DNA of 64,000 nucleotides from Patescibacteria group bacterium (lineage in GTDB: Bacteria > Patescibacteriota > Microgenomatia > UBA1400 > PJMF01): contig JBGTEY010000013.1 in NCBI GenBank assembly GCA_041747555.1, positions 208,814-272,813 of the forward strand, written 5' to 3'. The notes beneath the pieces were generated by a model, which was given only the letters and a program-made list of their open reading frames with translations, was not told the origin of the DNA and did no database searches. A program made the position numbers and the translations under genes. Shown here piece by piece: positions 26,464 to 60,367 of the stretch. Numbering within the stretch: position 1 is the stretch's first letter; each line of letters opens with the position of its first letter.

Positions 26464-26467
26464 AAAT

Positions 26468-27135: not shown

Positions 27136-27138
27136 TCT

Positions 27139-29201: not shown

Positions 29202-29319
29202 AACAAAAATAGCTTTTTTTACTAAGAAAAATGTTTGAGCTGAGCTTCTTCAAATTAAGTACACAATGCTATCGCACTCAAACTATTGACTCACACTCCC
29301 AAACTGCTACCATTTTCAT

Positions 29320-30021: not shown

Positions 30022-30047
30022 TCAGAGAATGGTGAAAACAAGTAAGT

Positions 30048-31064
30048 CTAGTTGAAAACACTATTTTCTAGTACCTTTTTAGTTAACGCATTTCCCTCAA
30101 AAAAAGTTGTGTATGTTTTGAATGAATAATACTGAGCATTTCCCGTATCGACCAATACATACATTTCGCTATATCTTTGATCATTTTTATCAAATGCACC
30201 CCGCTCAAGGTAATATATTTTTTTACCATCGTCCATGATGGCTGTATCGACTGTTTTTTTATAAACCACAGGATGTTCAATTGGAACAAAATACCTCTGT
30301 GCAATATCAAGTAGGTATTGCATAGCCTCTTGATCAGTGCTGACTGAATAATCAGTGTTAAAGTCAATGATAGTAACTCCAATAAACCTATTGTTGTTCA
30401 TGGTTGTTGTGCGGTCAGCCAAATATTCAGAATTGTACGTTCTCAAATAGTAGTTACTTGGTGCTTGATGATCCGCAAGTTCAAAATCAGCAGGATACCT
30501 AAATACAATACCTCTATCAGTGAGGTATTCATCGCTCAAAGATGGATCCCGAATCGAATTTCGCTGAGTGATGCTCAAATCATTTACGGTGAGACCACTT
30601 TCAAGCGCATGAACATTTGCACGTTCTGTTGACCGCGAAGTTCTTTTATTGAAATCGTACGCATACGCTCCACCAAAAACTAAGACGAAATATATTGCAA
30701 GCAGAAGAGACGTTTTGATTAATTGAACGTTTGTTGGTTTGCTTACTATTTTATAAATGAAAAGAGCAAGTAAGTATGCAAGAAGTATATTTATAAATAG
30801 TATTACAGCTATAGTGGGTCCCAGCATGCATAAATCACCCTTACCCTCGCATGAATCAGTAAAAAATAGTGCAGCAATCAGCACGCTTGGAAGCATCATG
30901 ATTTGAGAAGTGACGTAAAAAAGCAGCGGCGAAAAAAGCAAGAAAATGAAGGGATATTTTTTAAGAAAATTCATATGTAATTCCAGTATAGCACTTAGCA
31001 TACATCGCGACTTTATTTGCTTACTGCTCAGAAAAACCACACATATATCTGCAATTTCAACCAC
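30048..31064 (-). CDS. hypothetical membrane protein (about 4 TM helices, C-terminal soluble domain)
   Basis: Hydrophobic helices in the first about 150 residues. The remainder is hydrophilic with no recognised motif. Several in-frame Met codons make the true start uncertain. Confidence 0.3.
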   Translation of the reverse strand: MVEIADICVVFLSSKQIKSRCMLSAILELHMNFLKKYPFIFLLFSPLLFYVTSQIMMLPSVLIAALFFTDSCEGKGDLCMLGPTIAVILFINILLAYLLALFIYKIVSKPTNVQLIKTSLLLAIYFVLVFGGAYAYDFNKRTSRSTERANVHALESGLTVNDLSITQRNSIRDPSLSDEYLTDRGIVFRYPADFELADHQAPSNYYLRTYNSEYLADRTTTMNNNRFIGVTIIDFNTDYSVSTDQEAMQYLLDIAQRYFVPIEHPVVYKKTVDTAIMDDGKKIYYLERGAFDKNDQRYSEMYVLVDTGNAQYYSFKTYTTFFEGNALTKKVLENSVFN

Positions 31065-31170
31065 AATTAATCAAAACTATACCCCACCATCAAAGACTGA
31101 TATAATAAGCATAATTGAAACTACTGATCCAATCATACTGCTCATGAGCCTGAATTCCTAAATACCAACT

Positions 31171-32454
31171 ATGCCCACCCCTGATCTCTATCCAGTTATT
31201 TTTAATGTGATTATTTTACTGACACTGTCTGCTATTTTTTCTGGAGCAGAAACGGCGTTCACTAATCTATCTAGAGCGCGGATGGAGGTCATAAAAGACG
31301 ATGGAAAATTCGCATCAGAAATAATGTATCAGCTGTACAAAAGACTTGATTTATTGATAACACTAACACTGGCATTGAGTAACGGCGTAAATATTTTACT
31401 TGCAACATATTTGACAATTTTTTTCAGCAGCCTTTTTGGCGTTGATTTGGGTGGTACGTTGTCAGCTACGATAGGTACGTTGCTTGTCATAATTTTCGGA
31501 GAAATAATTCCCAAGAAAGTTGCAATTTTATTTCCTGTTGAATTTTCTAGAGCCACTTCTCATCTACTTTCGTTCCTCAATGTCATCCTATATCCCTTGC
31601 TGTATCCGCTGAAGTTGCTCAACCAACTCATGGACGCCATAGCAAAAAAATACGTTGTAATTGACGATGTAGAATTCCGTGAGGTAATGCAGCAAGAAAT
31701 TAAGGCTACATTGGGAATCGGTCACACCCATGGCGCACTGGAGAGTAAAGAGTACCAAATGATGAAAAAGCTACTCCTACTCAATGACAAGGAAGTAAAA
31801 GAAATCATGACTCATCGAAACGACATCTATGCCGTTCCTGCGCACAAGACACTCAGGGAAGTAATTGAAATTTCTTCGCAACTCAATATTTCAAGGCTCC
31901 CGATTTATACGAAAAGCTTGGACAATATCGAGTATATTATTCATGTACCACAACTCAGTCAGTTTTTCTTGGACCCGAGCAATTTAGACAAAAAGATCCT
32001 AGAATTTTGCACTACAAAGGCATTTAAAGTTCCTGAAACCAAAATTCTTGATGATCTGTTCTTTGAGTTTCAAAAAAAACGAGTACATATGGCAATTGTC
32101 TTAAATGAGTTTGGCAGAACGAGCGGTGTCATTACACTAGAAGACATTGTCGAACAAATCTTTGGTGAGATTGAAGATGAAACGGATGAAGTAGAAGTTT
32201 CCGTCGAGGCAATTGATGAATTCAAAGTGAGGGCAGACGGAGATGCCACGATAGAAGAAGTTCAAGATATCTTGAACATCCGGTTTCCTGATGAATTCCC
32301 TCGACACAAAACCATGAGCTGGGTGATTCTGGATATTTTACATAGATTTCCTGATGAAGGGGAGGTCATTACGGTTCCTGGCACAAATATTGATATTGAA
32401 GTCGTCGATAAGGATGGCGAGTATGTGGATAAGGTTTTTGTTGAGGTGAAGTAA
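31171..32454 (+). CDS. CNNM/HlyC-CorC family transporter (DUF21 TM domain + CBS pair + CorC_HlyC)
   Basis: 427 aa. N-terminal 4-TM DUF21 region, a central CBS pair, and C-terminal TLEDIVEQIFGEIEDETDE (CorC/HlyC transporter-associated domain). Confidence 0.8.
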   Translation: MPTPDLYPVIFNVIILLTLSAIFSGAETAFTNLSRARMEVIKDDGKFASEIMYQLYKRLDLLITLTLALSNGVNILLATYLTIFFSSLFGVDLGGTLSATIGTLLVIIFGEIIPKKVAILFPVEFSRATSHLLSFLNVILYPLLYPLKLLNQLMDAIAKKYVVIDDVEFREVMQQEIKATLGIGHTHGALESKEYQMMKKLLLLNDKEVKEIMTHRNDIYAVPAHKTLREVIEISSQLNISRLPIYTKSLDNIEYIIHVPQLSQFFLDPSNLDKKILEFCTTKAFKVPETKILDDLFFEFQKKRVHMAIVLNEFGRTSGVITLEDIVEQIFGEIEDETDEVEVSVEAIDEFKVRADGDATIEEVQDILNIRFPDEFPRHKTMSWVILDILHRFPDEGEVITVPGTNIDIEVVDKDGEYVDKVFVEVK

Positions 32455-33460: not shown

Positions 33461-34795
33461 ATGCCTTTTAAACCTGAACACACGAGCTACACATTCAAAC
33501 AGTCTGAAATTATTGATGGCTCGTTATTCCATGCACAAAAGGGTACTGGCTATGAAATGGACATTAGTGGCTACTTACAACTTTTACAACAGGTAACCGC
33601 AAATGATGAACTACAGGAACGCCATCTGCCCGAAATTTCGCCTCATAGCGACGGTATAGATGCATTACTAAAAACATTAGCCATCTGCCTTCCGGTTGAG
33701 CTTCGTAATTACAACAGAACACTGGAGCAACAAGACTTATACGCAGAACTCAATGAGATAGTGAATGATCAATTTCAAACAGCACGCCAACTACTTGATG
33801 AACGATTGGCTGAGCTGAATATCTCTGAGCGTGAGCTTCCATCAATTGAGCTTGATGATCAAACCCAGACTGCTATTTCACAGGTGCAGGAGCATGCATG
33901 GTACTTGGTTTTACTCAATCATCGAGTGATTTATAGTGCGACACGAGCGCACGCCCAGTGGTCAAATTTAGATCCTATAGAACAACAAGATTTGCTCCAG
34001 CTCACGCTCATGAGCTGTTGGCGCTCAGCTTGTCGACATAAGCCTGAGCACGGAGCATTTTTAACGTACCTTGGTAGTTATCTACCAGATCACATCGGCG
34101 AACTCGCTGCTGCAGTCCAAGGAATTAGCAAAAATCACAAAGTAAATTATCTAGACAGCTACAAGCATGCGCGAGTTCAACTAAGGGGAACTGTACTCGA
34201 TTACCCATATTGGCACGAACTCTATGCCTGTATGGTTTTTGATAAAAAGGCAGGAAGGCTTTCATATCAAGAGCCACTCAGAGCTATTTTGGCATATGAG
34301 CGAATATACCGTGGGAATCGTCCAATTCATGATGACAATGATGTGTTACGCTGGCACAACTCTTTACAAAACATGAGAGAGACGCTCGATTTCAGTCGCT
34401 TACCTAGGTTAAGGCAAATACTGGATCTGGCATACCCACTTTCACTTGATCGAGAACGACTTATTTATTTTTTCAATGAACGAGGCGATCTTGACTCGCT
34501 CCATGGCGACATCTATTATCGGCTTTCAACTGAAGAAGAGGACATTCCAGATCTCGTTGATCAGCGTCTCCTGGAGGATCAGGTGCTCAAGGTATTTGAA
34601 TACCTCGATGCTCGAGAAGTATTAGTACTACAACTTCGGTATGGGCTACATGGTATGGGTGAACACACTTTAGATGAGGTGGGTGAAATTATCGGTAGAA
34701 CATATGAGCGAGCACGCCAGATTGAGAGTAGCGCTTTAAGAAAACTACGTCACCCCAGTCGAAGTTATCTTATTGAAGATTTTAGGTCGGAATAA
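33461..34795 (+). CDS. sigma-70-family-like protein with canonical region 4.2 but highly degenerate region 2 and a long unique N-terminus
   Basis: C-terminus LDAREVLVLQLRYGL..HTLDEVGEIIGRTYERARQIESSALRKLRHPSRS is near-identical in pattern to RpoD region 4.2, including the RKLRHPSRS ending. NLDPIEQQDLLQLTLMSCWRSACRHKPEHGAFLTYLGSYLPDHI aligns positionally with region 2.1-2.4 (DLIQEGNIGLMKAV.KF.YRRGYKFSTYATWWIRQAI), but the conserved -10-recognition aromatics are replaced. Confidence 0.55.
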   Translation: MPFKPEHTSYTFKQSEIIDGSLFHAQKGTGYEMDISGYLQLLQQVTANDELQERHLPEISPHSDGIDALLKTLAICLPVELRNYNRTLEQQDLYAELNEIVNDQFQTARQLLDERLAELNISERELPSIELDDQTQTAISQVQEHAWYLVLLNHRVIYSATRAHAQWSNLDPIEQQDLLQLTLMSCWRSACRHKPEHGAFLTYLGSYLPDHIGELAAAVQGISKNHKVNYLDSYKHARVQLRGTVLDYPYWHELYACMVFDKKAGRLSYQEPLRAILAYERIYRGNRPIHDDNDVLRWHNSLQNMRETLDFSRLPRLRQILDLAYPLSLDRERLIYFFNERGDLDSLHGDIYYRLSTEEEDIPDLVDQRLLEDQVLKVFEYLDAREVLVLQLRYGLHGMGEHTLDEVGEIIGRTYERARQIESSALRKLRHPSRSYLIEDFRSE

Positions 34796-39163: not shown

Positions 39164-39724
39164 TTAGGCTCGTGAAATGTATGTTTTTGTTTCTGTGTCG
39201 ATGATGAGTGAGTCGCCTTTTTTGACAAAAAGTGGTGCTTGAACTACCAGCCCTGTTTCAAGCGTTACTTCTTTTCGTGCTTGACCAACGGTATTTCCAG
39301 CAACAGCCTCGATTGCGTCGGTGACCTTGAGCGTTACTTTGGGCGGGAGACTTATGCCGATTGGTGTCTCATCATTAAAGATCACATAGACCTGCACGTC
39401 TGGTGTAAGGAGTTGCAGTGAGTCCTCTGCGAAGCTGACGGGTATTGAAACTTGCTCATATGTCCGCGCGTTCATAAAAACTACTTCTGAACTATCATGA
39501 TAGAGGTACTGGAGTTGTTGATTGGTAACGTCAATTTGTGGGACCGATTCGTTAGATTTATAGGTGAAATCAACAGTGTTGCCAGTTTCAAAATTGCGCA
39601 ATTTTACTCGCATGAATGCAGAGCCTTTGCCCGGACTTATAAAATCCGTTTTGACAACTTGATGTGGCTGCCCCTTGAAAGAGATATACATGTGTTTTCT
39701 GAGTGAACCTGCTTTAATTTCTGG
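39164..39724 (-). CDS. efp: elongation factor P
   Basis: SLRKHMYISFKGQPHQVVKTDFISPGKGSAFMRVKLRNFETG contains the conserved KPGKG loop (the modified-lysine position). Three OB-like domains. Start taken at MPEIKAG. Confidence 0.85.
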   Translation of the reverse strand, partial: PEIKAGSLRKHMYISFKGQPHQVVKTDFISPGKGSAFMRVKLRNFETGNTVDFTYKSNESVPQIDVTNQQLQYLYHDSSEVVFMNARTYEQVSIPVSFAEDSLQLLTPDVQVYVIFNDETPIGISLPPKVTLKVTDAIEAVAGNTVGQARKEVTLETGLVVQAPLFVKKGDSLIIDTETKTYISRA

Positions 39725-39798
39725 CATGATTGGTATTGTAGCACGAAGATAGTTGACCAATTGCTCGGTTCGACGATGTAATTCTAACTAGCAGAACG

Positions 39799-40848
39799 CT
39801 ACTCAAAAAGTTCTGACACAGGAAAGGTCAGTGTCTCATTCACACCAGCAACATCTGCAAAAAGCATTACTAATCGATCAACACCCACGGCAATTCCACC
39901 CGTTGGGTGAAGTCCTGATTTGAGGGCTGCTATAAAGTTTTTATCAAGTGAATACGGTGTTTTTCCAAGCTCTTGTCGCAGCTGCAAGTCAGCAACCATG
40001 CGTGACTTTTGCTCTTCCCAATCAAGTAGTTCACTAAATGCATTTCCTAACTCAAGCCCACCAATATAAAACTCGAACCGCTCTGCATATCTTGGGTCTG
40101 ATGATTTTTTCTTGGCAAGTGCTGCCTGGGAGATTGGATAGTCAAATAGTATAGTTGGCCCATGGACGCCAAGGTGCGGCTCAATCTCATTGAGAAATAT
40201 TTGGTTATACATAGTCTCCCACGTGTCGGAGTCTGAAATTGAATAACCTTTTTTTCGTGCCGCTGCAAGTATTTTTTCTTCTTCGTGCAAAGCATCCTCG
40301 TTTATTCCAGCATATCGAGAAAATGCCTCGGCTACAGAAATTCTATCCCATGGTGGAGCGAGATCGTAGGCTAAACCTTGATACAGTAATTTTTGTCCAC
40401 TTGATGGATGCACCTGATCCAGAATGGAGAGCAACAATTGTTCACAGTCGTGCATGACGTGTGTGTAATCTGCGTTCGTCCGATACCACTCTAAGATGGT
40501 AAATTCAGGGTTATGCATATCGCTTAAGCCTTCGTCATTTCGAAAGCTTTTTGTAATTTGAAAAATATTTCCAAACCCAGCCGCCAGGAGTTGCTTCATC
40601 TGTAGTTCTGGACTGGTGGTGAGAAAGGCAGATGATTGTATTGAATCGCCACACCTCAATCGTGTCTCAAAAACCTCCAAGTATGGTTCTGTTCCAGGAC
40701 TTTTCACCAAAAGAGGAGTCTCAACTTCTCGAAATGACTGCGATTTAAAAAACGTCCGAATACTATCAATAACTTTCTCTCTAGTATCAAAAATATGCAG
40801 TAACTCTGGATGTTCGCGAATTTTTTGCCAGGTAGGAGTTTTTTGCAT
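39799..40848 (-). CDS. epmA: EF-P--(R)-beta-lysine ligase EpmA (PoxA/GenX; LysRS paralog lacking anticodon-binding domain)
   Basis: FREVETPLLVKSPGTEPYLEVFETRLR..SPELQMKQLLAAGFGNIFQITKSFRNDEG..HNPEFTILEWY matches class II LysRS-like motifs as found in EpmA. Adjacent to and co-directional with efp. Start moved to MQKTPTWQ to avoid overlap with the upstream gene. Confidence 0.75.
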   Translation of the reverse strand: MQKTPTWQKIREHPELLHIFDTREKVIDSIRTFFKSQSFREVETPLLVKSPGTEPYLEVFETRLRCGDSIQSSAFLTTSPELQMKQLLAAGFGNIFQITKSFRNDEGLSDMHNPEFTILEWYRTNADYTHVMHDCEQLLLSILDQVHPSSGQKLLYQGLAYDLAPPWDRISVAEAFSRYAGINEDALHEEEKILAAARKKGYSISDSDTWETMYNQIFLNEIEPHLGVHGPTILFDYPISQAALAKKKSSDPRYAERFEFYIGGLELGNAFSELLDWEEQKSRMVADLQLRQELGKTPYSLDKNFIAALKSGLHPTGGIAVGVDRLVMLFADVAGVNETLTFPVSELFE

Positions 40849-40867
40849 GTTTTGACAATCACTCACC

Positions 40868-41548
40868 TCACCGTGACAGATTTTTATTATATTGTTCTTC
40901 AATCGCTTGCCAATCATTGTCACTAATTAAAATATAGCGAGCCCACCCGTTACGAAAATCTCCAGGATTGATGTATTTATGAGAATCATCAGTACTTCGA
41001 AAGTGAGAATGGCCACATATTAAAAAGTCATGAGTGGTGAGCTCGTTGGCGAGTGCAACAAGCTTTGTATGTAGTCTTTTTCGATATTTTGAATCGAATT
41101 TACGTGCAAGAATGCCCAATTTATTCTCCTTTTCTTTAATTTTATGGAGTTTTTGATAATGTTTTCCGAATTTGCCTGTGAATCGTGGAAATAAATCATC
41201 AATTTCTGGCACTTCTAGATGCCCGTGCATCACCAGCGCTTGGTTTTCGCCGATAGAAAGTGTATGTTTGAAGCCCTGTACGTCAGAAAAAAGTGATGCT
41301 CGCTCATCCACAAACACTGGCTTGTCATGATTTCCATATAAATAGACCGCATTTTTTTCTTTAAGTAAAGGAAATAATTGCTTCCATGGGGATGAAATAA
41401 ACTCGTCAAACGATGTGAGATATGCATCCCAAAAATCTCCGTTAATTATCACCCGATCAACGTCAGAAATAACTGATGCAAGGGCATTAAAATGTGCCTC
41501 ATCAAATTCATGAGAAAGGTGAGTATCAGAAAAAATAAGTGTCTTCAC
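40868..41548 (-). CDS. metallophosphoesterase (calcineurin-like) family protein
   Basis: LIFSDTHL, INGDFWD and YLYGNHD are metallophosphoesterase motifs I-III. 226 aa. Confidence 0.7.
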   Translation of the reverse strand: MKTLIFSDTHLSHEFDEAHFNALASVISDVDRVIINGDFWDAYLTSFDEFISSPWKQLFPLLKEKNAVYLYGNHDKPVFVDERASLFSDVQGFKHTLSIGENQALVMHGHLEVPEIDDLFPRFTGKFGKHYQKLHKIKEKENKLGILARKFDSKYRKRLHTKLVALANELTTHDFLICGHSHFRSTDDSHKYINPGDFRNGWARYILISDNDWQAIEEQYNKNLSR

Positions 41549-43876: not shown

Positions 43877-44689
43877 ATGAAGCTCGCACTAGATACGTTC
43901 AAAATCTACATCCACCGTTGGTATCAGCAACACGGCCGCCACGAGCTTCCCTGGCGCGTCACAAGCGACCCCTACCACATTATGATCTCTGAGTTAATGC
44001 TTCAACAGACTCAAGTTGAGCGTGTTATTCCCAAGTATACTAAGTTTTTATTACATTTTCCTGACACAAAGACACTCGCCAACGCTAGTTTGGCTGAGGT
44101 ACTAGTGCTGTGGCAAGGACTTGGATACAACAGACGAGCAAAGTATCTTCATCAAACTGCCCAAAAGATTGTTTCTACAGACAACAAATTTCCTAATGAT
44201 TTTTCCACGTTAATTTCTCTCCCTGGAATAGGTAATTACACAGCAGCTGCCATCATGAATTTTGCATTCGGTGTGGCAACTCCGCTCATTGAAACCAATG
44301 TTCGAACTGTTTTTTTGTATCATTTTTTTCCGGATCAGAAAGATGTTGACGATGTGCAGCTACTGCCCTTTATTGAGGAATCACTTGATCATGCTCACCC
44401 CAGGGAATGGTTTTGGGCACTAATGGATTATGGTGCTTACCTTAAGAAGGCGGTATCTAATCCCAATCGGCGAAGTAAGCAGTACGCGAAACAATCAACA
44501 TTTTCAGGATCGAAGCGTCAAGTGCGTGGAGCGGTTATACGTTTTTTAAGTACGAATGTAAATGCTAACAGACTTGAGCTAGAGTCTGCAATCGCAGGAG
44601 ACATGAAATTTTTACCCGATGTGTTGCATGATTTGAAAAACGAAAAACTGATTAGAGAGCGCAGTGGCAGGTTTTCCCTGGCAGTGTAG
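43877..44689 (+). CDS. HhH-GPD superfamily DNA glycosylase, MutY/EndoIII-like core without Fe-S cluster cysteines and without NUDIX-like C-terminal domain
   Basis: ELPWRVTSDPYHIMISELMLQQTQVERVIPKY and LPGIGNYTAAAIMNFAFG form the HhH-GPD motif with the catalytic Asp region. There is no C-x6-C-x2-C-x5-C cluster and no cysteines in the C-terminal 90 residues. Confidence 0.65.
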   Translation: MKLALDTFKIYIHRWYQQHGRHELPWRVTSDPYHIMISELMLQQTQVERVIPKYTKFLLHFPDTKTLANASLAEVLVLWQGLGYNRRAKYLHQTAQKIVSTDNKFPNDFSTLISLPGIGNYTAAAIMNFAFGVATPLIETNVRTVFLYHFFPDQKDVDDVQLLPFIEESLDHAHPREWFWALMDYGAYLKKAVSNPNRRSKQYAKQSTFSGSKRQVRGAVIRFLSTNVNANRLELESAIAGDMKFLPDVLHDLKNEKLIRERSGRFSLAV

Positions 44690-44698
44690 AATACACTC

Positions 44699-45655
44699 AT
44701 GACAAGAACGCATTTTTCAGTAGTAGGCCTCGGCGGCACTTTTGACCATTTTCACAAAGGACATGAGGATTTTATTCGATTTGCTGCCAATCTTGGTGAT
44801 TCATTAATCATCGGAGTCACTGATGATCTCTTGCCGCTAGGCAAACCACTCGCCGACCTGCTCCAACCACATTGGGTACGTATTGCTGCAGTGAGAAAGT
44901 TCTGCGATCGAGAAAATATCACTGCAACGTGTGTTATCTTGCATGATGCATTTGGCCCCACCATTGAACCTTCAAGAATTGCAGCGCTTGCGGTTACTAC
45001 AGATACTGCTTCTGGTGCAGATGCCATTAATGTAATTCGAGAAAAGATGAGAATGCCAACGTTGCCCGTATATATTCAGAATCTCACTCTTGATGAAAGC
45101 GGCAAACCAATTACATCTCAACGCATCCGAGCAGGGGAGATTAACAGGTTGGGAACGGTGTACGCTGAAATTTTCACCAGTGATATTACACTATCGAGTC
45201 CACAAAGAGATTTTTTCTCAAAGCCACAAGGAGAAATTGTGGAACAACCATCAATATCGCCAATTACTTGTGTAGTAGGGGATGTTTGTCTATCAACATT
45301 TAGAGAAAACGAGTGGAATTATGACCTTGGAGTTTTTGATCACAAAACACAGCGCGTTGAAAATATAGTTGGCGATCTTGACACAATACAAGCTGACGTA
45401 AAAATTACAAACCATGCTGGAAGCATTTCGGCAGATCTCATTAAGGCACTTCAATCGTGGCACAAAAAACAGTATCAGCACCTTCAAATTGAGGGTGAAG
45501 AGGACTTAGTTACAGTAGCCCTTGCGCTCACACTACCCCTTGAATCGCATATTTATTACGGCCAACCAGATAAGGGAATGATTGAACTCGTAGTCACAGA
45601 AGAGATTAAAGACGCTTTTTATGAAATCCTAATCGATCAAGGAGACACAGAGTAA
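44699..45655 (+). CDS. bifunctional archaeal-type phosphopantetheine adenylyltransferase (cytidylyltransferase-like) fused to DUF359 (archaeal GTP-dependent dephospho-CoA kinase-like) domain
   Basis: N-terminus VVGLGGTFDHFHKGHEDFIRFAANLGDSLIIGVTDD is the (T/H)xGH nucleotidyltransferase motif in the archaeal/eukaryotic PPAT arrangement. C-terminal half ITCVVGDVCLSTF..GVFDHKTQRVEN resembles the DUF359 pattern (GDVV .. D.KT.R). Family assignment is by recalled motifs. Confidence 0.5.
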   Translation: MTRTHFSVVGLGGTFDHFHKGHEDFIRFAANLGDSLIIGVTDDLLPLGKPLADLLQPHWVRIAAVRKFCDRENITATCVILHDAFGPTIEPSRIAALAVTTDTASGADAINVIREKMRMPTLPVYIQNLTLDESGKPITSQRIRAGEINRLGTVYAEIFTSDITLSSPQRDFFSKPQGEIVEQPSISPITCVVGDVCLSTFRENEWNYDLGVFDHKTQRVENIVGDLDTIQADVKITNHAGSISADLIKALQSWHKKQYQHLQIEGEEDLVTVALALTLPLESHIYYGQPDKGMIELVVTEEIKDAFYEILIDQGDTE

Positions 45656-45657: not shown

Positions 45658-46845
45658 ATGCCACTCGCATCGCTATTGAGACCAAATACATTTGATGATT
45701 TCATTGGGCAATCGCATTTAGTTGGTAAAAATAAACCTATTTCATTAAGTATAGAAAAAAATCATGTATTCTCGATGATTCTTTGGGGTCCACCAGGGGT
45801 AGGAAAAACAACTCTAGCGCGATTAATTAGCAAAGCGCATGGCAGAGCATACCACGAGCTGTCCGCGGTCTCAGCTTCAAAGCAAGATTTGCGCGATATT
45901 ATCGAAAAAACATCTCAACAAAAACAATTATTAGAAAGCTATGAACCACCAATTGTGTTTCTTGATGAGATACATCGGTTTAATAAAGCGCAACAAGATT
46001 ACCTACTTCCTCATGTTGAGACAGGTGCGATCATTTTGATCGGCGCCACAACAGAGAATCCAAGTTTTGAGGTCATTTCAGCCTTACTTTCAAGAACAAA
46101 AGTCTATGTACTCAAACCACATGGTGATGCTGACATAGCTAAAATAATTACACGCGCACTTTCCACACTAGATCAAAAAAAGATTCCACAAAAAACTATT
46201 GACTGGCTCATCGCCTATGCCAGCGGAGATGCACGCAAGCTTCTCAATCTTTTAGAACACACCCATAATCTCTACAAAACCATTACGATCAAACATCTAA
46301 AACAATCTGCACAAAGCAATCAACTATCATACGATAAACAAGGCGATGCTCATTACGATACGATCAGTGCATTTATCAAATCTATGCGAGCAAGTAATGT
46401 TGATGCATCGCTCTATTATTTAGCTAGAATGGTTGACGCAGGTGAAGACCCAAAATTTATTGCCAGGCGGATGGTAATTTTTGCCAGTGAAGATATCGGT
46501 TTGGCAAATCCAACAGCACTCGTTGTCGCAAATGAAGTGTTTGCTGCGGTTGAGCGAATCGGATACCCAGAGGCACAAATAAATCTAGCTCATGGTGTAG
46601 CACACCTTGCACGTTGTAAAAAAGATCGCCGTGCGTACGATGCTTTTTTTGCGGCACTCAAAGACGTGCAGACGTTTGGCGCATTACCCGTGCCAATGAA
46701 CCTTAGAAATGCACCAACAACGCTCATGAAAAAAGAAGGGTATGGTGCTGGGTATGAAATGTATCCTGACACCAAAGTTTCATTGCTGCCAGATAAATTA
46801 AAAAATAAAAAATATTTACAACGCCAAGATACTGATTCAGATTAG
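45658..46845 (+). CDS. rarA: replication-associated recombination protein A (RarA/MgsA), AAA+ ATPase
   Basis: MILWGPPGVGKTTLARLI Walker A and VFLDEIHRFNKAQQD Walker B / sensor. C-terminal MgsA_C-like region. Confidence 0.85.
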   Translation: MPLASLLRPNTFDDFIGQSHLVGKNKPISLSIEKNHVFSMILWGPPGVGKTTLARLISKAHGRAYHELSAVSASKQDLRDIIEKTSQQKQLLESYEPPIVFLDEIHRFNKAQQDYLLPHVETGAIILIGATTENPSFEVISALLSRTKVYVLKPHGDADIAKIITRALSTLDQKKIPQKTIDWLIAYASGDARKLLNLLEHTHNLYKTITIKHLKQSAQSNQLSYDKQGDAHYDTISAFIKSMRASNVDASLYYLARMVDAGEDPKFIARRMVIFASEDIGLANPTALVVANEVFAAVERIGYPEAQINLAHGVAHLARCKKDRRAYDAFFAALKDVQTFGALPVPMNLRNAPTTLMKKEGYGAGYEMYPDTKVSLLPDKLKNKKYLQRQDTDSD

Positions 46846-46864: not shown

Positions 46865-48397
46865 GTGTGTGTAAGAGTGTTATTCCATACTAAGGCAGTG
46901 ACACTAGAAGAAGCACTTCTAAACTACTTTGGGTACCGTGAATTTCGAGATGGGCAGCGGGAAATAGTGACTGCACTCATCAAGGGAAGAGATGTGCTCG
47001 CGCTCTTACCAACTGGTGGAGGAAAATCAATATGCTTTCAATTACCCGCACTGTTGCGACCAGGCGTTACCATCGTCATTTCACCCCTCATTTCTCTCAT
47101 GTACGATCAGGTTCAGGCGCTTGTGGGCAAAGGCATTCCTGCCTGCAACATTACGAGCGCCGCTCCCAAGATTGAGCGTGAAAAGCTCATCAAAGAAATT
47201 CTAGAAGGTAAATATAAAATCGTTTATGTCTCACCGGAGCGGTTTGCGTCCACCATATTTCAAACGAGTTTAAAACAGATCGACATCTCTCTGATTGCGG
47301 TTGACGAAGCGCATTGCCTAGTCGAGTGGGGGCACGATTTTCGACCGCCGTATAGGGAGATTGGGAGCATCATTGCTGACTGGGACAGACGACCGCCCAT
47401 TGCTGCATTTACCGCCACGGCCACACCAACTACCGCACTTGAAATTATCAGTTCATTGAGACTGAGAGATCCCTATAAAAACGCTGCCGATTTTGCCAGA
47501 GATAATCTACATATAACGGTGATACGTCCATCCAACACTTTCTTTCATGCTTTGTTATTTTTGCGTCTCTTGGTTCGTCACAATCATCAATCTGGAATCG
47601 TGTATGTGAGCACAAGAAAGGCCGCGCGACAATTTGCAACGCTTATACAAGAATTTGCCTCAATAATTGATCAGTACCCTCGGCCTGTTTTAATCTATCA
47701 TGGCGGGCTGACAGCGCAAGAAAGACAGACTGCTCAAGACGAATTTATTTCCCAACCAAGGGCGGTAATAGTAGCTACAAATGCATTTGGCATGGGCGTT
47801 GACAAACCGAATACAAGATTTGTAATTCATGTTCAGGTTCCAGGCACTATTGAGGCTTATTATCAAGAAATTGGCAGGGCAGGGCGAGACGGTGCGCCAG
47901 CATGGTGCTATTTTTTATATGATTATCGATCGCTGACTATTCAGCGCTCCATGATTTCTCAAAGTAAACAAACTGATATTCGAACAGAAAAGTTTCACAC
48001 ACTCCTTTCATACATTTTTGGTGCAAAATGCAGGATGTCTACGCTAGTTTCATACTTTTCACCTGAAGTAGACTCCAATCAAATTGACTGTGGAAAGTGT
48101 GATAACTGCACTCAAAATACCGCAATGCAATCCCCAATACCTCATCCCCTCTTTCAAATCACATCACCACTAGAGACCAAAACAATTAAGCGTCTCGTGC
48201 GCAAACTCAGAAATTTCAACAATTCATCTGAGCTCTCCTGCACTGACGCCCAGCTTGCTTACCTCGCCCACGCTCGACCAATCGGTATTCAAAACGCGCG
48301 ACAACTACCAGCGATCGGGGATGGCTGGCTCAAAAATTGGTGGCCAATCGTAAAACCCATGCTCCCAGGCACACATATGATACAATTACCCGAATAA
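46865..48397 (+). CDS. recQ: RecQ-family ATP-dependent DNA helicase (short form)
   Basis: FREGQRE, LLPTGGGKSICFQLPAL (motif I), VDEAHCLVEWGHDFRPPY (motif II DEAH), RQC zinc-binding cysteines (CRMS..C..C..C). 510 aa. Confidence 0.85.
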   Translation: MCVRVLFHTKAVTLEEALLNYFGYREFRDGQREIVTALIKGRDVLALLPTGGGKSICFQLPALLRPGVTIVISPLISLMYDQVQALVGKGIPACNITSAAPKIEREKLIKEILEGKYKIVYVSPERFASTIFQTSLKQIDISLIAVDEAHCLVEWGHDFRPPYREIGSIIADWDRRPPIAAFTATATPTTALEIISSLRLRDPYKNAADFARDNLHITVIRPSNTFFHALLFLRLLVRHNHQSGIVYVSTRKAARQFATLIQEFASIIDQYPRPVLIYHGGLTAQERQTAQDEFISQPRAVIVATNAFGMGVDKPNTRFVIHVQVPGTIEAYYQEIGRAGRDGAPAWCYFLYDYRSLTIQRSMISQSKQTDIRTEKFHTLLSYIFGAKCRMSTLVSYFSPEVDSNQIDCGKCDNCTQNTAMQSPIPHPLFQITSPLETKTIKRLVRKLRNFNNSSELSCTDAQLAYLAHARPIGIQNARQLPAIGDGWLKNWWPIVKPMLPGTHMIQLPE

Positions 48398-48439
48398 GTG
48401 TTGATCGATACGACTATTTTAAAACAGCAAGGAAACAAC

Positions 48440-48784
48440 ATGACAATACAACATTTAGTAGAGGAATACGCAAAAATTGGCGCATTCTTAAACGAAAAAT
48501 GGCCACTAAAAAACCACGATCAACGCGTCTTTGCCCGAACCATGAAAGTTGTGGAAGAACTTGGTGAGCTCGCGGATGAACTCCTCACCAGCATGAATCT
48601 TCAAAGAAGTCATAAAATTGCTCAATTCAGTAGAGAAAATGTTGAAGATGAGTTTGCAGATGTACTCGCATCACTGATACTACTCGCAAATGAACTCGGA
48701 ATTGATGTTGAAGCAGTGATGCAGAAAAAAATTGAATTTACTCGTGACAGATTTGAGATGGAAGAGGAGACTTCGAATAAGTAA
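48440..48784 (+). CDS. MazG-like nucleotide pyrophosphohydrolase (all-alpha NTP-PPase)
   Basis: EELGELADEL and EDEFADVLASLILLANELGID match the MazG-type EEXXE/D metal-binding helices. Start taken at MTIQHL. Confidence 0.6.
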   Translation: MTIQHLVEEYAKIGAFLNEKWPLKNHDQRVFARTMKVVEELGELADELLTSMNLQRSHKIAQFSRENVEDEFADVLASLILLANELGIDVEAVMQKKIEFTRDRFEMEEETSNK

Positions 48785-48799: not shown

Positions 48800-50653
48800 T
48801 TACTGTGAAATTCTCATCACCTGATACATTCCACGGTCAGAAAAACCTTTTTTTCTATAGTAAGGTCGTGTACCAACCGCAGAAATAACTGCCAACTCAG
48901 AAAATCCTTCACTTGAGGATAGTTCCGTTGCTCGGGCAATCAACTGCGTTCCATATCCTTGATGCTGAGACGCCGAACTTTTTTCTTTCCCAATTTCCAC
49001 AACGGTTCCATAAACATGGATCTCTCTAATTACGGCTGCTTTCTTTAAATCTTCCATAAACGATTCTTTAGTTGGCAAGCTCAAGCGCAAAAACGCCAAT
49101 AGTTTCTCTTCTCCTGTTGAGGAAGGTGCAACGAACTGCAAAAAAACCTCAGTGCTCGTTGATGTCTGGTATCGAATCTCATCCAATCTGACTTGAGTCT
49201 CGTCCACCACCTCATTTCGCACTTCACGCGCTCTGATATCCCTAATTACTCCACCTGATTTTTTGATCTGCTCTGTAACTATCTGGCGAAAGTTAGTCAA
49301 GGTATTTCCAACCACAATATCAGGTGAAGGTATGTCTCTAATCACCCGCGTAAGTCTGCAGTACTCTGGTGTGAAAAGCATGGAATGTACAAGAACTTCA
49401 GCAAGTTCAGTTTTTGTGTACGGTTTCCACTTACCTTGTTTGTAGTACTGCATTAATTCTGCACTTTGAATTAATGAACAGGGGTATATTTTTAGCTCAT
49501 CAGGTCTAAAATCAGGATCGGTGAATAAAAGCTCAAAATCCTTCTTGTCCGCTTCCACACTCGATCCGTGCAAATTTGCCATCCAGTGCGCATGAATTTT
49601 AAACCCTGCCTGACGAAGTAACCCAATCGCATGCCTTGATGCCGCAACGTCATGCCCGCGATTATTTTTTATTAATACAGAATCCTGCAGGCTCTGCAAA
49701 CCTATCTGAGTCTTTGTGCAACCAAGGCGTCGAATTCGTTTAACCTCAGCCATAGAAATATTATCTGGGCGTGTCTCGATCACCAGTCCAACGCTTCGAC
49801 ACGCTGCTGTTTCATTTCTGAGCTGTTCATACTCCAGCTCCTCCCAAGTCGCGCTCTGATACGCATCAAACCCACCCTTTTTCTCTGGAGCCACATACAT
49901 TTTTGAAACAACTTGATTATAGGTCTCACTCAGGTGTTCACCATCAATTTCTTTTCCTGCAGTTACTGATTTATTATGCAAAGGATCTGAAGTTGGAGCA
50001 TGCTCTTTTTTTTCTAAAAGTGATCGCTGCATCGACTCATAGTGGTCAAGCACTGCTTGCCGGCCATCCACCGTTCCAAAGTCATTGAGTGCGCGAAAGC
50101 ATTCTTTTATAAACCAAATTTGATATTTTTCAGGATAATATGACCATGTTCCGCCCAAAATAATTAGTTCAGTTTTTTCCACAATGTGACCAATATTCTC
50201 GAGCGCTTGGAGTCGATTGTAGGTCTGCAAGTACGGATCAAACCAATTTCTTTCTGCCCGTTGGGCACCCGGCTCATCAGATAAATAGCTTTTGGGCATC
50301 CGCACATCATTGGGACAAAAAATGCATTTTCCAGGACAAGGGAATGGCTTAGTAAGCACGGTCACTGGCGAAACTCCAGACATTGTACGAACAGGCTTCA
50401 TCTTGAGCTTGGCAATCATGGCACGGTCAAATTTTTTCAGTCCATGATCTCCCGCCAAATGCTTATAAGCAAAAATAAGCTGGTCTTTGGCAAACACACC
50501 ACCTTCAGGCTTGGCAAATTTTTTAGCCATTTTCTGATAGACTTTGGTGCTCAAATTGTCTGCTTTTTCTATAGCTTTCAAAAAGGGAACCAATTGCTCA
50601 AGATAGCGAGTATAATCAAAGGACTGCATAGAATCAGATATTATACGGGACAA
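48800..50653 (-). CDS. Elp3-like protein: radical SAM domain + C-terminal GNAT acetyltransferase domain (tRNA wobble-uridine modification enzyme family)
   Basis: Radical-SAM cluster motif CPGKCIFCPN (C-x3-C-x2-C, as CPG+C+FCP in Elp3). A large about 380-aa radical-SAM/Elp3 core. C-terminal HQGYGTQLIARATELS..GTRPYYRKKGF GNAT motif A. 617 aa. Confidence 0.75.
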   Translation of the reverse strand: MSRIISDSMQSFDYTRYLEQLVPFLKAIEKADNLSTKVYQKMAKKFAKPEGGVFAKDQLIFAYKHLAGDHGLKKFDRAMIAKLKMKPVRTMSGVSPVTVLTKPFPCPGKCIFCPNDVRMPKSYLSDEPGAQRAERNWFDPYLQTYNRLQALENIGHIVEKTELIILGGTWSYYPEKYQIWFIKECFRALNDFGTVDGRQAVLDHYESMQRSLLEKKEHAPTSDPLHNKSVTAGKEIDGEHLSETYNQVVSKMYVAPEKKGGFDAYQSATWEELEYEQLRNETAACRSVGLVIETRPDNISMAEVKRIRRLGCTKTQIGLQSLQDSVLIKNNRGHDVAASRHAIGLLRQAGFKIHAHWMANLHGSSVEADKKDFELLFTDPDFRPDELKIYPCSLIQSAELMQYYKQGKWKPYTKTELAEVLVHSMLFTPEYCRLTRVIRDIPSPDIVVGNTLTNFRQIVTEQIKKSGGVIRDIRAREVRNEVVDETQVRLDEIRYQTSTSTEVFLQFVAPSSTGEEKLLAFLRLSLPTKESFMEDLKKAAVIREIHVYGTVVEIGKEKSSASQHQGYGTQLIARATELSSSEGFSELAVISAVGTRPYYRKKGFSDRGMYQVMRISQ

Positions 50654-53880: not shown

Positions 53881-54756
53881 ATGACAATTCCCAAAAAAAC
53901 CCTAAAAAACGGATTCTCAATACCAATTTTCGGCCTTGGCACCTGGGGAATGGGTGGATTGAGACACAGAGACGAACAAAATGATGATTCAGCCGATGTT
54001 GAGGCTATCAAAACTGCAATCAAAGCTGGCATCACACACATCGACACAGCAGAGTCATATGCCGATGGTCATTCTGAGATACTAATCAATCAAGCTATCT
54101 CAGATTTTGATCGGTCCACACTTTTTATGGTTTCCAAAGTATCACCTTATAATCAAGGCTTTTCTCAACTTAAAAAATCCTTGAAAGGCTCACTTTCTAG
54201 AATGGGCTTAGACTATTTGCATCTGTATTTACTACATCAACCGAGTGAAGATTTTTCTATTGAAGAAACAATGAGAGCAATGGATGAACTTAAGGATGAA
54301 GGATTGATTAGAAATATTGGTGTAAGCAATTTCACGGTTAATCAAATGAAAAAAGCTCAAAAAGCAACCAAGCATACGATTGTAGTTAATCAGGTTCATT
54401 ACAATCTGATGGTTCGAGAGGTTGAGGATAAAGGAATTTTAAAGTACTGCCAGCAAAACGATGTTATTCTAATGAGCTGGAGACCTCTGCAAATGGGGGA
54501 GATACTCACTTTGGGTGATTCTATTCTTAAAAAAATGGCACAAAAGTACAAAAAAACACCCGCCCAAATTGCACTTAATTGGCTTACTTCTCAAAAAAAT
54601 GTGGTGGTGATTTCAAAAATGAGAAATCCAGACCATTTAGAAGAAAATTTGAATTCAGTGGGGTGGGAAATGGAAGAAGAGGATATAGACTATTTGAGAA
54701 AAGAATTCCCCAAACAAGTGAAAGTGTCGGAAGTTATACCGTTGAAAGAATGGTAG
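53881..54756 (+). CDS. aldo/keto reductase
   Basis: IPIFGLGTWGMGG N-terminal motif, catalytic tetrad region, 291 aa, typical AKR spacing (LDYLHLYLLHQP). Confidence 0.85.
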   Translation: MTIPKKTLKNGFSIPIFGLGTWGMGGLRHRDEQNDDSADVEAIKTAIKAGITHIDTAESYADGHSEILINQAISDFDRSTLFMVSKVSPYNQGFSQLKKSLKGSLSRMGLDYLHLYLLHQPSEDFSIEETMRAMDELKDEGLIRNIGVSNFTVNQMKKAQKATKHTIVVNQVHYNLMVREVEDKGILKYCQQNDVILMSWRPLQMGEILTLGDSILKKMAQKYKKTPAQIALNWLTSQKNVVVISKMRNPDHLEENLNSVGWEMEEEDIDYLRKEFPKQVKVSEVIPLKEW

Positions 54757-55295
54757 TGATGACAAACAAACTAAACTCTTCCCTCGACGTTGCTGTAGTT
54801 TTCTTTCTCATTTGCGGAGGTGCATATTTTCTATACTATATATTAAAAACAAACAACGGCACTTATTTACTCCTAACTTTTTTAGTCTACATACTCAGTT
54901 TTTTAGTAAGAAAATTTATTACTAAAAATAAAAACAAACAAAAATTTAGCGAACTAGGAATCTGCTTTATTTCACTGCTCTTTACAGCTTATACAGTATA
55001 TTTCACTGGCTTTGACAATAATATAGCTACTTATCTCCCAGAAAATATTCTGGCTGGATCGGGGGTAGCATTCATATTTTTATTTTTAGTACAATTGCTG
55101 CGTCCAAAAAAGAATTCAATACATGTAGCACCCATACTTATTCTTTTTGCAGTACTTATTTTTTTTAAGGGAGTAATAGATTCACTATTCATTACTTACC
55201 CATACCTAAGCACACTTATTATTGGAGCACCGTATCTTTACATTATTTCGATCTTGGTTGGGTATCCAGAGCATGAAAAATCCTTAGCGGCATAG
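54750..55295 (+). CDS. hypothetical polytopic membrane protein
   Basis: Starts at MVVMTNKL overlapping the AKR stop. About 6 hydrophobic helices. The upstream part of ORF-track 54579 is in the AKR gene and is rejected. Confidence 0.35.
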   Translation: MVVMTNKLNSSLDVAVVFFLICGGAYFLYYILKTNNGTYLLLTFLVYILSFLVRKFITKNKNKQKFSELGICFISLLFTAYTVYFTGFDNNIATYLPENILAGSGVAFIFLFLVQLLRPKKNSIHVAPILILFAVLIFFKGVIDSLFITYPYLSTLIIGAPYLYIISILVGYPEHEKSLAA

Positions 55296-55362
55296 TGCAA
55301 CACATTGTCGCATCTGCAACTGCATTACTATTGGTGAAAATTCCTTATTCATATGTGAAGAA

Positions 55363-56067
55363 TTATATAGCATTCTTCGACGACCGACTCCGCTTCAAAT
55401 AGGGCTTCAACTCCCGCCACCCTTGTTGTTTGCTACTGTCGATGAGCAAATGTGCCGCACCACCAAGTACTTGCAACGTTGCACTAATTTGATTGGTGAT
55501 TTCTGGACCAGGATTTTCCTCTACAAGAAGCCGCTCCATGATCTTTTTTGGCGTAAATTTAGATATTAGCCGAACCTCTTGTGGATCAATCGAAATACTT
55601 GTCAACGTATCCAATTCACCAGCGCTCATTTCGTTTGATGAAAGTAAATCTGGTAATTGGTGCTTTTCTGGGTGGGTAATATGTTGAATTAATCCAAGTT
55701 GAAGTACGGCCTTTTGGAATGGGACTGTTTCTGGGGGAGTGTAGTAGCGAATGCTTGATAAGCGAGTTGCACTATAGTCATCAGGATCAACTAGAACTCC
55801 AATTAAATTTGTAACTGACGGCCTCAGCGATCTGTCTGCTAGCATAAACTCAGGATCAACAAAATAGAGCTCAAACGCATAACCCCCACCATCTTTAGGC
55901 ACTTTCTCAATGAAAAAAGAGTGGGGATGACTCAACTTTTTTCGCTTTTCTAGATCTGGTTCACCATTTGGTTTTACGTACGTTTGACCAGCTTGATGGA
56001 TATAATAGTAGCTAGTTTCTTCCCGCTTAGAAAAAAAGACTCTAGCGCGGTACCGATCGTTTTCCAC
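55363..56067 (-). CDS. hypothetical protein
   Basis: 234 aa, soluble. Overlaps the next ORF (different frame) by about 94 nt. Confidence 0.3.
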   Translation of the reverse strand: MENDRYRARVFFSKREETSYYYIHQAGQTYVKPNGEPDLEKRKKLSHPHSFFIEKVPKDGGGYAFELYFVDPEFMLADRSLRPSVTNLIGVLVDPDDYSATRLSSIRYYTPPETVPFQKAVLQLGLIQHITHPEKHQLPDLLSSNEMSAGELDTLTSISIDPQEVRLISKFTPKKIMERLLVEENPGPEITNQISATLQVLGGAAHLLIDSSKQQGWRELKPYLKRSRSSKNAI

Positions 56068-59096: not shown

Positions 59097-59846
59097 TTGT
59101 ATACTGAGTATATGCAGAACGATCAATGTTTATTTAGTCCCTGGGAGTGTCAATCGACGCTTACTGTTTTTATCGAGAGATATTGGGTTTCATTAGCGCT
59201 CCTCATCTTTTTTTCACTTTTAGCATCACTTCTACTGCTTACGATAATCAACGCCAGCACGCTGATTGGACAAAAAAAGACTGTGAAGAAAAAACCGCTA
59301 TTTCGCGCCAAACCGGTCGCAAGTCAAATCGCCATCGGCCTGACCAGCTTTCTTTTTTTCATGCTCAGCCCCTTAGTGGTTGTTCAAACTCATTATGGCG
59401 GATTTGGCATCCAACTTACCGATCCGTTTTTGCACTGCGTTATACTTGATGCGCCAAATGAATGCTATGTCGAGGCCGCCAAAAGCGCGGTCGCAGGGAA
59501 TACCGCAGCCGACATATCATTTCGAAACGCCCACAGTATTTGTACAATTACTCTCTCTCCAGAAAAATGCAAAGTCTCTGTTTGCCAATCCATATCATCA
59601 GGGGGCGCTACAACCACCGACGCTGCCAAAGCGCTTCAAGAAAGCTGCCTCAATACCATCAGTCCAACCTGTCCAGACGGAAATATCCTGGACTCCATAC
59701 CGTGCAGTTGCTATTTACCAGAAGAAGAGCGGGTCGCAGTCTACACCACCTCATGGCACGATGAATACTGGAATAAGTACAGAAAAATGGATCAACCGCC
59801 GTATTGCTGTGATGGCATCAGAAGCAGTTTCGTGTGTGGAAACTAA
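59097..59846 (+). CDS. hypothetical Cys-rich membrane-anchored protein
   Basis: TM helix LALLIFFSLLASLLLLTIIN. 17 cysteines in the extracytoplasmic part. True start uncertain. Confidence 0.3.
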   Translation: MYTEYMQNDQCLFSPWECQSTLTVFIERYWVSLALLIFFSLLASLLLLTIINASTLIGQKKTVKKKPLFRAKPVASQIAIGLTSFLFFMLSPLVVVQTHYGGFGIQLTDPFLHCVILDAPNECYVEAAKSAVAGNTAADISFRNAHSICTITLSPEKCKVSVCQSISSGGATTTDAAKALQESCLNTISPTCPDGNILDSIPCSCYLPEEERVAVYTTSWHDEYWNKYRKMDQPPYCCDGIRSSFVCGN

Positions 59847-60367
59847 AAATTACCAGGCAAAACAGTCAGTACTTTGACTGATATGTCCCTACTGCCAACC
59901 CGATAGCTCACCGTCTCACCAGCCTTTTTCCCCAAAACTGATTTTCCAAGTGGACTGACTACAGATATCATGTCCTGTCGCGTTGCTGAATCTTCTGGCC
60001 CCAAAATAGTATACGTCTCTGGATCATCTTCTCCATCAAAGAGTACCTCAATGGTATTTCCAATTCCAACTTGTGCTGTTTCTTGCCTTGGTTCAATTAT
60101 TTCTGCGGCACTCAACACCTCTCGAATTCGCTCAACTTGGGTTTGAAGCACTCCAGAAGCTCTAACCGCTTCGTCATAAGCAGCATTGTCATGCCAGTCA
60201 GATGCCGATCCTGCTTCACCTTGTGATATCATGGTTTCGCTTAATTTGCTCAGTAGCTGATCAAGCTCTTCTTGCAATCGCTCATAAGTACTATTGGACA
60301 TTGGAATAGTTTTTTTCTCTGTAGCTATGCGTTCGCCTACAACAGTGTTTTCAAGTGATAAAATCAT
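59843..60367 (-). CDS. GreA/GreB-family transcription elongation factor (second paralog)
   Basis: N-terminal coiled-coil (YERLQEELDQLLSKL..DWHDNAAYDEA) and C-terminal FKBP-like domain (ISVVSPLGKSVLGKKAGETVSY). 174 aa. Confidence 0.7.
   Translation of the reverse strand: MILSLENTVVGERIATEKKTIPMSNSTYERLQEELDQLLSKLSETMISQGEAGSASDWHDNAAYDEAVRASGVLQTQVERIREVLSAAEIIEPRQETAQVGIGNTIEVLFDGEDDPETYTILGPEDSATRQDMISVVSPLGKSVLGKKAGETVSYRVGSRDISVKVLTVLPGNF

Follow-up and report, generated by a model that had tools for sequence, protein, structure and literature searches.

A predicted bifunctional archaeal-type coenzyme A synthase encoded by a Patescibacteria genome

In bacteria, the last two reactions of coenzyme A (CoA) biosynthesis are normally catalyzed by two separate proteins, CoaD and CoaE. 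A single gene on a contig of a Patescibacteria group bacterium (assembly GCA_041747555.1, contig JBGTEY010000013.1, positions 208,814 to 272,813) raises the question whether a member of the candidate phyla radiation (CPR, Patescibacteria) might perform both steps with one archaeal-type enzyme instead. The gene is located at positions 44699..45655 (+) of the 64,000 nucleotides (64 kb) analyzed here, which are referred to as the window throughout. An initial annotation, made from the sequence alone, had described it as an archaeal-type phosphopantetheine adenylyltransferase (PPAT) fused to a DUF359 domain, the latter being the family of the archaeal GTP-dependent dephospho-CoA kinase (DPCK). Based on the evidence compiled below, the gene very probably encodes a bifunctional archaeal-type CoA synthase, which would most likely supply CoA from a salvaged late precursor and stand in for CoaD and CoaE. 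The main interest of the locus lies in whether CPR bacteria overall swapped CoaD/CoaE for an archaeal-type enzyme, which bears both on gene sharing between CPR and archaea and on the host dependence of these organisms.

Architecture, fold and catalytic residues of the fused protein

According to the list of open reading frames (ORFs), positions 44699..45655 on the plus strand, stop codon included, form an uninterrupted ATG-to-stop ORF of 318 codons encoding a bifunctional PPAT-DPCK candidate of 318 aa. The peptides quoted in the initial annotation are present in its translation (GLGGTFDHFHKGH at residues 10-22, VGDV at residues 193-196 and FDHKTQR at residues 213-219). As judged by Pfam and BLASTP, this single ORF holds a complete N-terminal PPAT and a complete C-terminal DUF359 domain, with a connection of only about 8 residues between them. 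Both domains scored far better than expected by chance and above their Pfam gathering thresholds, with CTP_transf_like matching residues 12-145 (E 2.9e-9, 37.7 bits versus a cutoff of 21) and DUF359 (PF04019) matching residues 202-311 (E 1.9e-20, 73.2 bits versus a cutoff of 25), and the two best PDB sequence matches of the 318-aa protein are 3do8 and 8jvc. An AlphaFold2 model of the fused protein, built on a 30-sequence alignment, reached a mean predicted local distance difference test (pLDDT) score of 93 and a predicted template modelling (pTM) score of 0.88, the latter suggesting that the PPAT and DPCK domains are oriented in a defined way with respect to each other. The top PDB matches of this model in Foldseek were 8jvc/8jvg and also 3do8. 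Pfam, NCBIfam, the PDB sequence search and the AlphaFold2 model with its Foldseek matches agree on the combination of a PPAT with a DUF359 domain, which is confirmed by this agreement.

The PPAT domain comprises residues ~9-155 (44723..45163, +) and belongs to the archaeal/eukaryotic type with a nucleotidyltransferase alpha/beta fold, as indicated by NF001985, 3do8 and Foldseek. The distinction from bacterial CoaD drawn in the initial annotation holds, since the best NCBIfam model of the N-terminal half is that of the archaeal PPAT subfamily (NF001985; residues 7-155, 149 of 157 profile positions, E 4.5e-29) with 101.5 bits, as against 14.8 bits for the bacterial coaD equivalog TIGR01510, which falls well short of its cutoff of 103.3 bits. 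In the same NCBIfam scan of the protein, none of the RibL, NMNAT and TagD models scored comparably to the PPAT model. Residues 9-154 align to residues 3-147 of the Archaeoglobus fulgidus PPAT (PDB 3do8, E 6.8e-13), and the AlphaFold2 model matches this structure in Foldseek with a template modelling score (TMt) of 0.79-0.88, while matches to bacterial CoaD structures are weaker (E ~1e-5, TMt ~0.6). Conservation was assessed in an alignment of 30 homologs being 40-69% identical to the query. Here, G12, G13, F15, D16, H19, G21 and H22 are invariant, and the HxGH nucleotide-binding motif is found as H19-K-G-H22 (44753..44764, +) within the stretch GGTFDHFHKGH. The second nucleotidyltransferase motif, ITSQRIR at residues 138-144 (45110..45130, +), corresponds to the family motif ISxxRIR and aligns to 'ISSTRIKRGEI' of 3do8; in the extended form ISxxRIRxG, no variation is seen at R144 and G146 and almost none at I143. 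Thus, the domain shares fold and motifs with archaeal/eukaryotic PPATs of COG1019 (A. fulgidus 3do8, Thermococcus kodakarensis TK2128) and aligns with them from end to end, but differs from them in bearing a C-terminal DPCK domain.

The C-terminal DUF359/GTP-dependent DPCK family domain covers residues ~163-312 (45185..45634, +) and was assigned by PF04019, BLASTP to TK1697 and Foldseek to 8jvc. It had likewise been expected from the initial annotation, and it proved to be complete, with all three catalytic aspartates kept. In the PDB search, residues 172-311 match the T. kodakarensis GTP-dependent DPCK (8jvc, E 7e-10), and in BLASTP against full-length TK1697 residues 165-311 align to residues 5-165 (29% identity, E 5e-18); as this alignment includes the N-terminal segment of TK1697, the kinase is considered complete. 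Foldseek comparison of the AlphaFold2 model with 8jvc/8jvg gave E-values of 5.7e-12 to 1.3e-10 and TMt of 0.68-0.72 over 167-170 aligned columns of ~170. Moreover, four PRK01160 DUF359 models as well as the Thermococcales DPCK model match this half with E-values of 1e-11 to 1e-14. No match to the P-loop CoaE domain PF01121 was found in the 318-aa protein by Pfam, nor by phmmer using E. coli CoaE.

Alignment with 8jvc equates Asp195 (in VGD; 45281..45283, +) with catalytic Asp48 of TK1697, Asp214 (in FDHKTQR; 45338..45340, +) with catalytic Asp67 and Asp269 (in GEEDL; 45503..45505, +) with Asp125, all three being invariant in the family. Altogether, G194-D195, D214, G266-E-E-D269-L270 and Y287-G-Q-P290 are invariant in the 30 homologs. 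In a CoA-auxotrophic T. kodakarensis background, growth was strongly impaired with the TK1697 variants D48A and D67A, while the effect of D125A was milder (PMC6650551). Given the invariant catalytic residues and these mutant phenotypes, both active sites of the fused protein look intact and under selection. TK1697 itself (PDB 8jvc/8jvf/8jvg) is homologous to the C-terminal half over the whole enzyme and has the same fold and the corresponding Asp48, Asp67 and Asp125, but is a separate protein of 177 aa, whereas the DPCK of the window is fused to a PPAT.

Predicted function and competing explanations

In the proposed reaction sequence, the PPAT domain would transfer AMP from ATP onto 4'-phosphopantetheine to give dephospho-CoA, which would then be phosphorylated at its 3'-OH to yield CoA by the DUF359 domain, whose fold is derived Rossmann-like and related to that of thiamine pyrophosphokinases. 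The phosphate donor is probably GTP, as in T. kodakarensis TK1697. In this arrangement, two complete enzymes would stand head to tail, with the joint of ~8 residues and a predicted packing as one rigid unit. The short linker and the confidently modelled inter-domain packing would be compatible with a hand-over of the intermediate, while actual channelling is speculation. Since no upstream enzymes were detected nearby, the substrate is probably salvaged, either as 4'-phosphopantetheine or as pantetheine if a kinase is encoded elsewhere. A precedent for host-dependent, genome-reduced bacteria keeping only the last CoA steps is provided by mycoplasmas, in whose host-dependent reduced genomes the terminal CoA steps alone are retained, DPCK being most commonly kept.

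The domain combination as such is already known from archaea since 2019, when Shimosaka, Makarova, Koonin and Atomi identified the archaeal DPCK via arCOG04076/DUF359-PPAT fusions in many uncultured archaea and demonstrated GTP-dependent DPCK activity of TK1697 as well as the associated CoA auxotrophy (mBio, PMC6650551). Their PSI-BLAST retrieved archaeal DUF359 members only (PMC6650551). The window protein adds a bacterial CPR member to this known fusion; full-text searches, in a literature coverage that is incomplete, returned no paper tying DUF359, DPCK or the PPAT fusion to CPR/Patescibacteria, and CoA is not mentioned in a major genetic study of Saccharibacteria. The archaeal PPAT-arCOG04076 fusions (e.g., AIF21550.1 from marine group II/III) have the same domains in the same order, a similar length and the same catalytic residues. 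They differ from the window protein in full-length sequence (28-34% identity for Poseidoniales, i.e., marine group II (MGII), and 29-34% for DPANN) and in host, the window protein residing in a CPR bacterium and in a CPR-only subclade that is ~30% identical to them. Eukaryotic COASY follows the same order and logic, in that a single chain carries a homologous PPAT and a kinase for the two final reactions (mentioned in PMC6650551). However, the COASY kinase is of the P-loop CoaE type, whereas the window kinase is an unrelated Rossmann-like DUF359 domain, so that COASY and the PPAT-DUF359 fusions are convergent. In comparison to bacterial CoaD and CoaE, the same two reactions would be catalyzed, and CoaD shares the nucleotidyltransferase superfamily fold, but those two are separate proteins while the window protein is fused and without a P-loop kinase domain.

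Several points weigh against the assignment as a CoA synthase replacing CoaD and CoaE. The enzyme activities of the CPR fusion members are predicted, and GTP is the probable donor of the CPR enzyme by analogy with TK1697, the only family member for which this preference is known, and not by a reading of its sequence. The NF001985 score of the PPAT half lies just below the cutoff of 104 bits, and the Thermococcales DPCK equivalog NF041125 reaches 50.6 bits (E 1.5e-13) versus a cutoff of 300, so that PPAT/DPCK orthology is inferred rather than curated. NF041125 is lineage-specific, though, and the shortfall therefore bears on strict equivalog naming, not on family membership. Finally, the inspection of this genome for coaD and coaE spans the 64 kb of the window, out of a source contig of 274,772 bp, and the fused enzyme could therefore be redundant.

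According to this best-surviving alternative, the protein is a real PPAT-DPCK serving as an accessory or alternative route next to canonical CoaD and CoaE encoded elsewhere in the genome. No CoaE (PF01121), bacterial CoaD, CoaBC or pantothenate kinase was detected in the window by a Pfam scan of 70 of its 72 non-overlapping ORFs, entered as concatenated polyproteins (the other two, SecA and seryl-tRNA synthetase, were recognized by eye, and SecA was then confirmed by its relatives). Using E. coli CoaE and Dfp as phmmer queries, no CoaE or CoaBC was obtained when the ORFs from all six frames were searched in the window and in 80 homologous loci, 1.28 Mb together, of which ~1.2 Mb flank the 80 homologs. 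With E. coli CoaD, the same 1.28 Mb gave weak matches only (E >= 2e-4), which are mostly found in or beside the fused gene, the best one (L073) being a separate ORF on the opposite strand. Such searches of the window and 80 loci are weak tests of genome-level absence of CoaD and CoaE. Redundant pathways are not expected in streamlined CPR genomes with their general genome reduction, and the fusion has been kept across hundreds of them. Overall, redundancy is regarded as unlikely, and CoaD and CoaE are probably lacking from the genome as a whole.

Less probable still is a drift in substrate of one or both domains, with the N-terminal half acting on flavin mononucleotide, nicotinamide mononucleotide or a sugar phosphate, or with DUF359 being a pyrophosphokinase for another cofactor, in which case no CoA would be made. 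CTP_transf_like is indeed a broad superfamily, the score for the NCBIfam PPAT subfamily is marginally under its cutoff, and DUF359 is distantly related to thiamine pyrophosphokinases (PMC6650551). Against this, the best specific models of the two halves are those of two consecutive CoA enzymes, the catalytic residues are invariant, and the RibL, NMNAT and TagD models did not reach comparable scores. Furthermore, the same two-domain fusion recurs in archaea in which DUF359 is the only DPCK.

Distribution and phylogeny of the fused family

A word-indexed search returned 1,035 homologs at E <= 1e-3, of which the top 120 are all 303-346 aa long and contain both Pfam domains. Where names are given among these 120, they read "pantetheine-phosphate adenylyltransferase", "cytidyltransferase-like protein" or "DUF359 domain-containing protein", and the named sources are Patescibacteria, Pacebacteria, Wildermuthbacteria and Microgenomates, with the closest homolog (70% identity) deriving from a Microgenomates-group metagenome-assembled genome. 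An exhaustive search of 50%-identity representatives yielded 3,080 matches at E <= 1e-3, of which 1,158 reach E <= 1e-10 and 348 reach E <= 1e-30. Almost every sequence among the top 150 is full length (about 310-350 aa). Counting one genome per species, 459 of the first 600 pattern matches, and hence at least 459 GTDB species representatives, encode a relative. The fused family is large and under purifying selection. The expectation that this gene would be a notable archaeal acquisition stands in so far as an archaeal-type fusion does occur in a bacterium, but it is not peculiar to this genome, being family-wide in CPR; the family is under-annotated, and the window protein is a typical representative of it, not a one-off.

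For locus comparisons, the best 80 loci among the matches listed were used, the best match having 50% identity and the source genome of the window being outside this set. The PPAT-DUF359 architecture is present in 79 of these 80, the exception being interrupted by a contig end. Bacterial fusion loci derive from Paceibacteria, Levy-, Roizman- and Chisholmbacteria, Saccharibacteria, Yanofskybacteria and Peribacteria, and archaeal ones from Micrarchaeota/Micrarchaeia and Norongarragalinales (both DPANN) as well as from Poseidoniales/MGII. A further label, Candidatus Kaiserbacteria, is doubtful: the protein at this locus (L046, 8471-9544) and that of a Norongarragalinales archaeon (L048, 6270-7385) are identical over the aligned kinase domain, which implies a wrong label or contamination in one bin or in both and calls for care with bin-level labels. 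Host labels such as "Vitreimonas", "Pseudomonadales" and "Gammaproteobacteria" were rejected as mislabelled Patescibacteria on account of SecA similarity and shared synteny. SecA of the "Vitreimonas sp." contig (L009, DASPLQ010000012.1, 1.41 Mb) is 67% identical to that of the window and falls among Pacebacteria/Woesebacteria matches, and about 30 loci labelled 'uncultured Pseudomonadales/Gammaproteobacteria' display CPR gene order and 30-45% GC.

The relationship of the bacterial and archaeal fusions was addressed by a rough neighbour-joining tree of the full-length fused protein (49 sequences, 305 columns, 300 bootstraps). In this tree, a window-type CPR clade (CPR-A) is split from all other sequences at 96% bootstrap; it consists of 16 sequences, comprising the window, its Microgenomates neighbour, Pacebacteria and Yanofsky-, Peri- and Wildermuthbacteria. 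Poseidoniales (100%) and DPANN (89%) form supported clades as well, while the relationships between the CPR-A, MGII and DPANN clades are unsupported. The remaining CPR sequences (CPR-B, including Levy-, Roizman- and Chisholmbacteria, Saccharibacteria and others) show 36% similarity to DPANN and 35% among themselves. In a second neighbour-joining tree, of the kinase domain with standalone archaeal DPCKs as outgroups, support is too weak to root the CPR sequences or to separate one from several fusion events. By the full-length tree, the window protein sits in a CPR-specific subclade of a fused family that is common to DPANN and MGII archaea.

A broader and tentative reading would be that CPR/Patescibacteria as a group make CoA by means of a fused PPAT-DPCK of archaeal type, with GTP as its probable donor, in place of CoaD/CoaE, with the gene being old in the radiation, exchanged anciently between CPR and DPANN or other archaea, and with the organisms depending on host-derived 4'-phosphopantetheine. 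Its component of an ancient inter-domain exchange is derived from the spread over Paceibacteria, Microgenomates, Saccharibacteria, Peribacteria and others together with two deep CPR clades that this reading recognizes, one of which is as close to DPANN sequences as to itself. If this broader reading applies, the fused enzyme would be the sole gateway to CoA in episymbionts without upstream pathway. Within the pan-archaeal core, DUF359 was the last gene left uncharacterized, and CheckM uses it among its archaeal markers; under the group-wide reading, this 'pan-archaeal core' gene and CheckM archaeal marker would also be a near-core CPR gene, which is not raised in the literature searched. In any case, its breadth in CPR adds to the genes that CPR and archaea have in common and matters for marker-based estimates of quality and contamination when CPR and DPANN are binned together.

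With regard to annotation, hundreds of CPR proteins named only "PPAT" or "DUF359" at NCBI almost certainly carry the final CoA step too, and this under-naming of the fusion causes pathway reconstructions based on CoaE to score CoA synthesis wrongly as incomplete. Should CoA be made through the fusion alone, with no upstream steps in place, episymbionts would have to import 4'-phosphopantetheine or pantetheine; such an import would constitute a concrete host dependency and offer a possible medium supplement for cultivation. As a second type of fused CoA synthase with a kinase unrelated to that of COASY, the predicted enzyme could also be used for studies of substrate channelling and of GTP versus ATP use.

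Host, gene neighbourhood and further features of the window

As the initial annotation had it, the host is bacterial, namely a CPR bacterium according to the gene content of the window and the relatives of its SecA. The window encodes SecA, a complete F1Fo ATP synthase operon, two GreA paralogs, EF-P, MutM, RecQ and a sigma-70 region 4 protein, together with enzymes of glycolysis and aminoacyl-tRNA synthetases of bacterial type. Among named proteins, its SecA has its best relatives in Microgenomates (90% identity, partial), followed by Pacebacteria, Woesebacteria and "Patescibacteria group" at 66-70% identity. The GC content of the fused gene and its GC content at third codon positions (GC3) do not stand out within the window (z = -0.1 and -1.3), and a recent horizontal transfer was rejected as both values lie within ~1.3 standard deviations of the window genes. 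Contig content, SecA and composition thus place the gene in a CPR/Patescibacteria host, where it has not arrived recently and was not put by faulty binning. Although CPR and DPANN bins do get confused, as exemplified by the identical protein in L046 and L048, an archaeal gene on a mis-assembled or mis-binned contig without bacterial host is a negligible prospect for this locus. Here, gaps of 10 nt and 3 nt separate the fused gene from the co-directional genes on either side, the contig is bacterial in gene content with Patescibacteria as SecA relatives, the gene has a composition typical of the window, and the synteny recurs at 9-18 loci (window counted).

Directly upstream and co-directional is a HhH-GPD (MutY/Nth-like) DNA glycosylase gene (43877..44689, +), which ends 10 nt before the fused gene. 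Downstream, the Pfam scan identified RarA/MgsA (45658-46845, +), starting 3 nt after the fused gene, followed by RecQ (46865-48397, +) and a MazG-like protein (48398-48784, +); next comes an Elp3 homolog in the reverse orientation (48800-50653, -), which was confirmed by PDB matches. With this window counted, 18 loci have RarA no more than 5 kb away from the fused gene, 15 of them directly downstream, and RecQ, Elp3 and MazG-like genes are found within the same distance at 13, 10 and 9 loci, respectively, almost all of these loci belonging to the window-type clade. In the other clades, recurrent neighbours recognized by eye are GreA, leucyl-tRNA synthetase, TsaD and ABC transporter components. 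No transporter, pantothenate kinase (PanK) or AcpS was identified as a recurrent neighbour of the fused gene in the window-type loci, the recurrent neighbours being housekeeping genes. None of RarA, RecQ, MazG and Elp3 is a partner in the CoA pathway. The recurrent neighbours were rejected as functional partners, and Elp3, being a user of acetyl-CoA, is noted merely as a curiosity. A promoter/terminator scan around the fused gene gave counts at chance level.

The Elp3 homolog (48800-50653) is full length, with radical SAM and Radical_SAM_C domains and a GNAT-like QHQGYG motif, and matches archaeal and Dehalococcoides Elp3 structures (E 5e-95 and 2e-86). Enzymes of this archaeal/eukaryotic type modify tRNA in an acetyl-CoA-dependent manner and are rarely found in bacteria; the present one is encoded 3 kb from the predicted CoA synthase.

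Among the translation-related genes of the window, a class II lysyl-tRNA synthetase (11719-13827, +) carries a C-terminal extension of ~200 aa bearing a HD phosphohydrolase domain. At 39164-40923 (-), EF-P directly adjoins a 374-aa class II aminoacyl-tRNA synthetase paralog of the EpmA/PoxA-like type, an arrangement suggesting that EF-P is beta-lysylated in this CPR bacterium. Regarding transcription, two paralogs of the GreA/GreB family are present within the 64 kb (11188-11667, +, and 59843-60367, -), and a 444-aa protein (33461-34795, +), in which Pfam detects sigma-70 region 4 only, may be a divergent sigma factor.

The GC content drops to 0.37-0.39 at positions 26000-32000 and 54000-56000, compared to a window mean of 0.42. 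The first of these dips, which may be an island, begins immediately behind tRNA-Arg and tRNA-His and contains genes for YecM, a histidine phosphatase, DUF1801 and an endonuclease/exonuclease/phosphatase. Just upstream of the ATP synthase operon, a 670-aa protein is encoded (2785-4797, +) that combines a long, highly acidic, D/E/T/S-rich low-complexity middle with a transmembrane segment and a weak LytR_C match. At the beginning of the window (105-1649, +), transketolase is split into separate N-terminal and C-terminal ORFs, the former being partial at the window edge.

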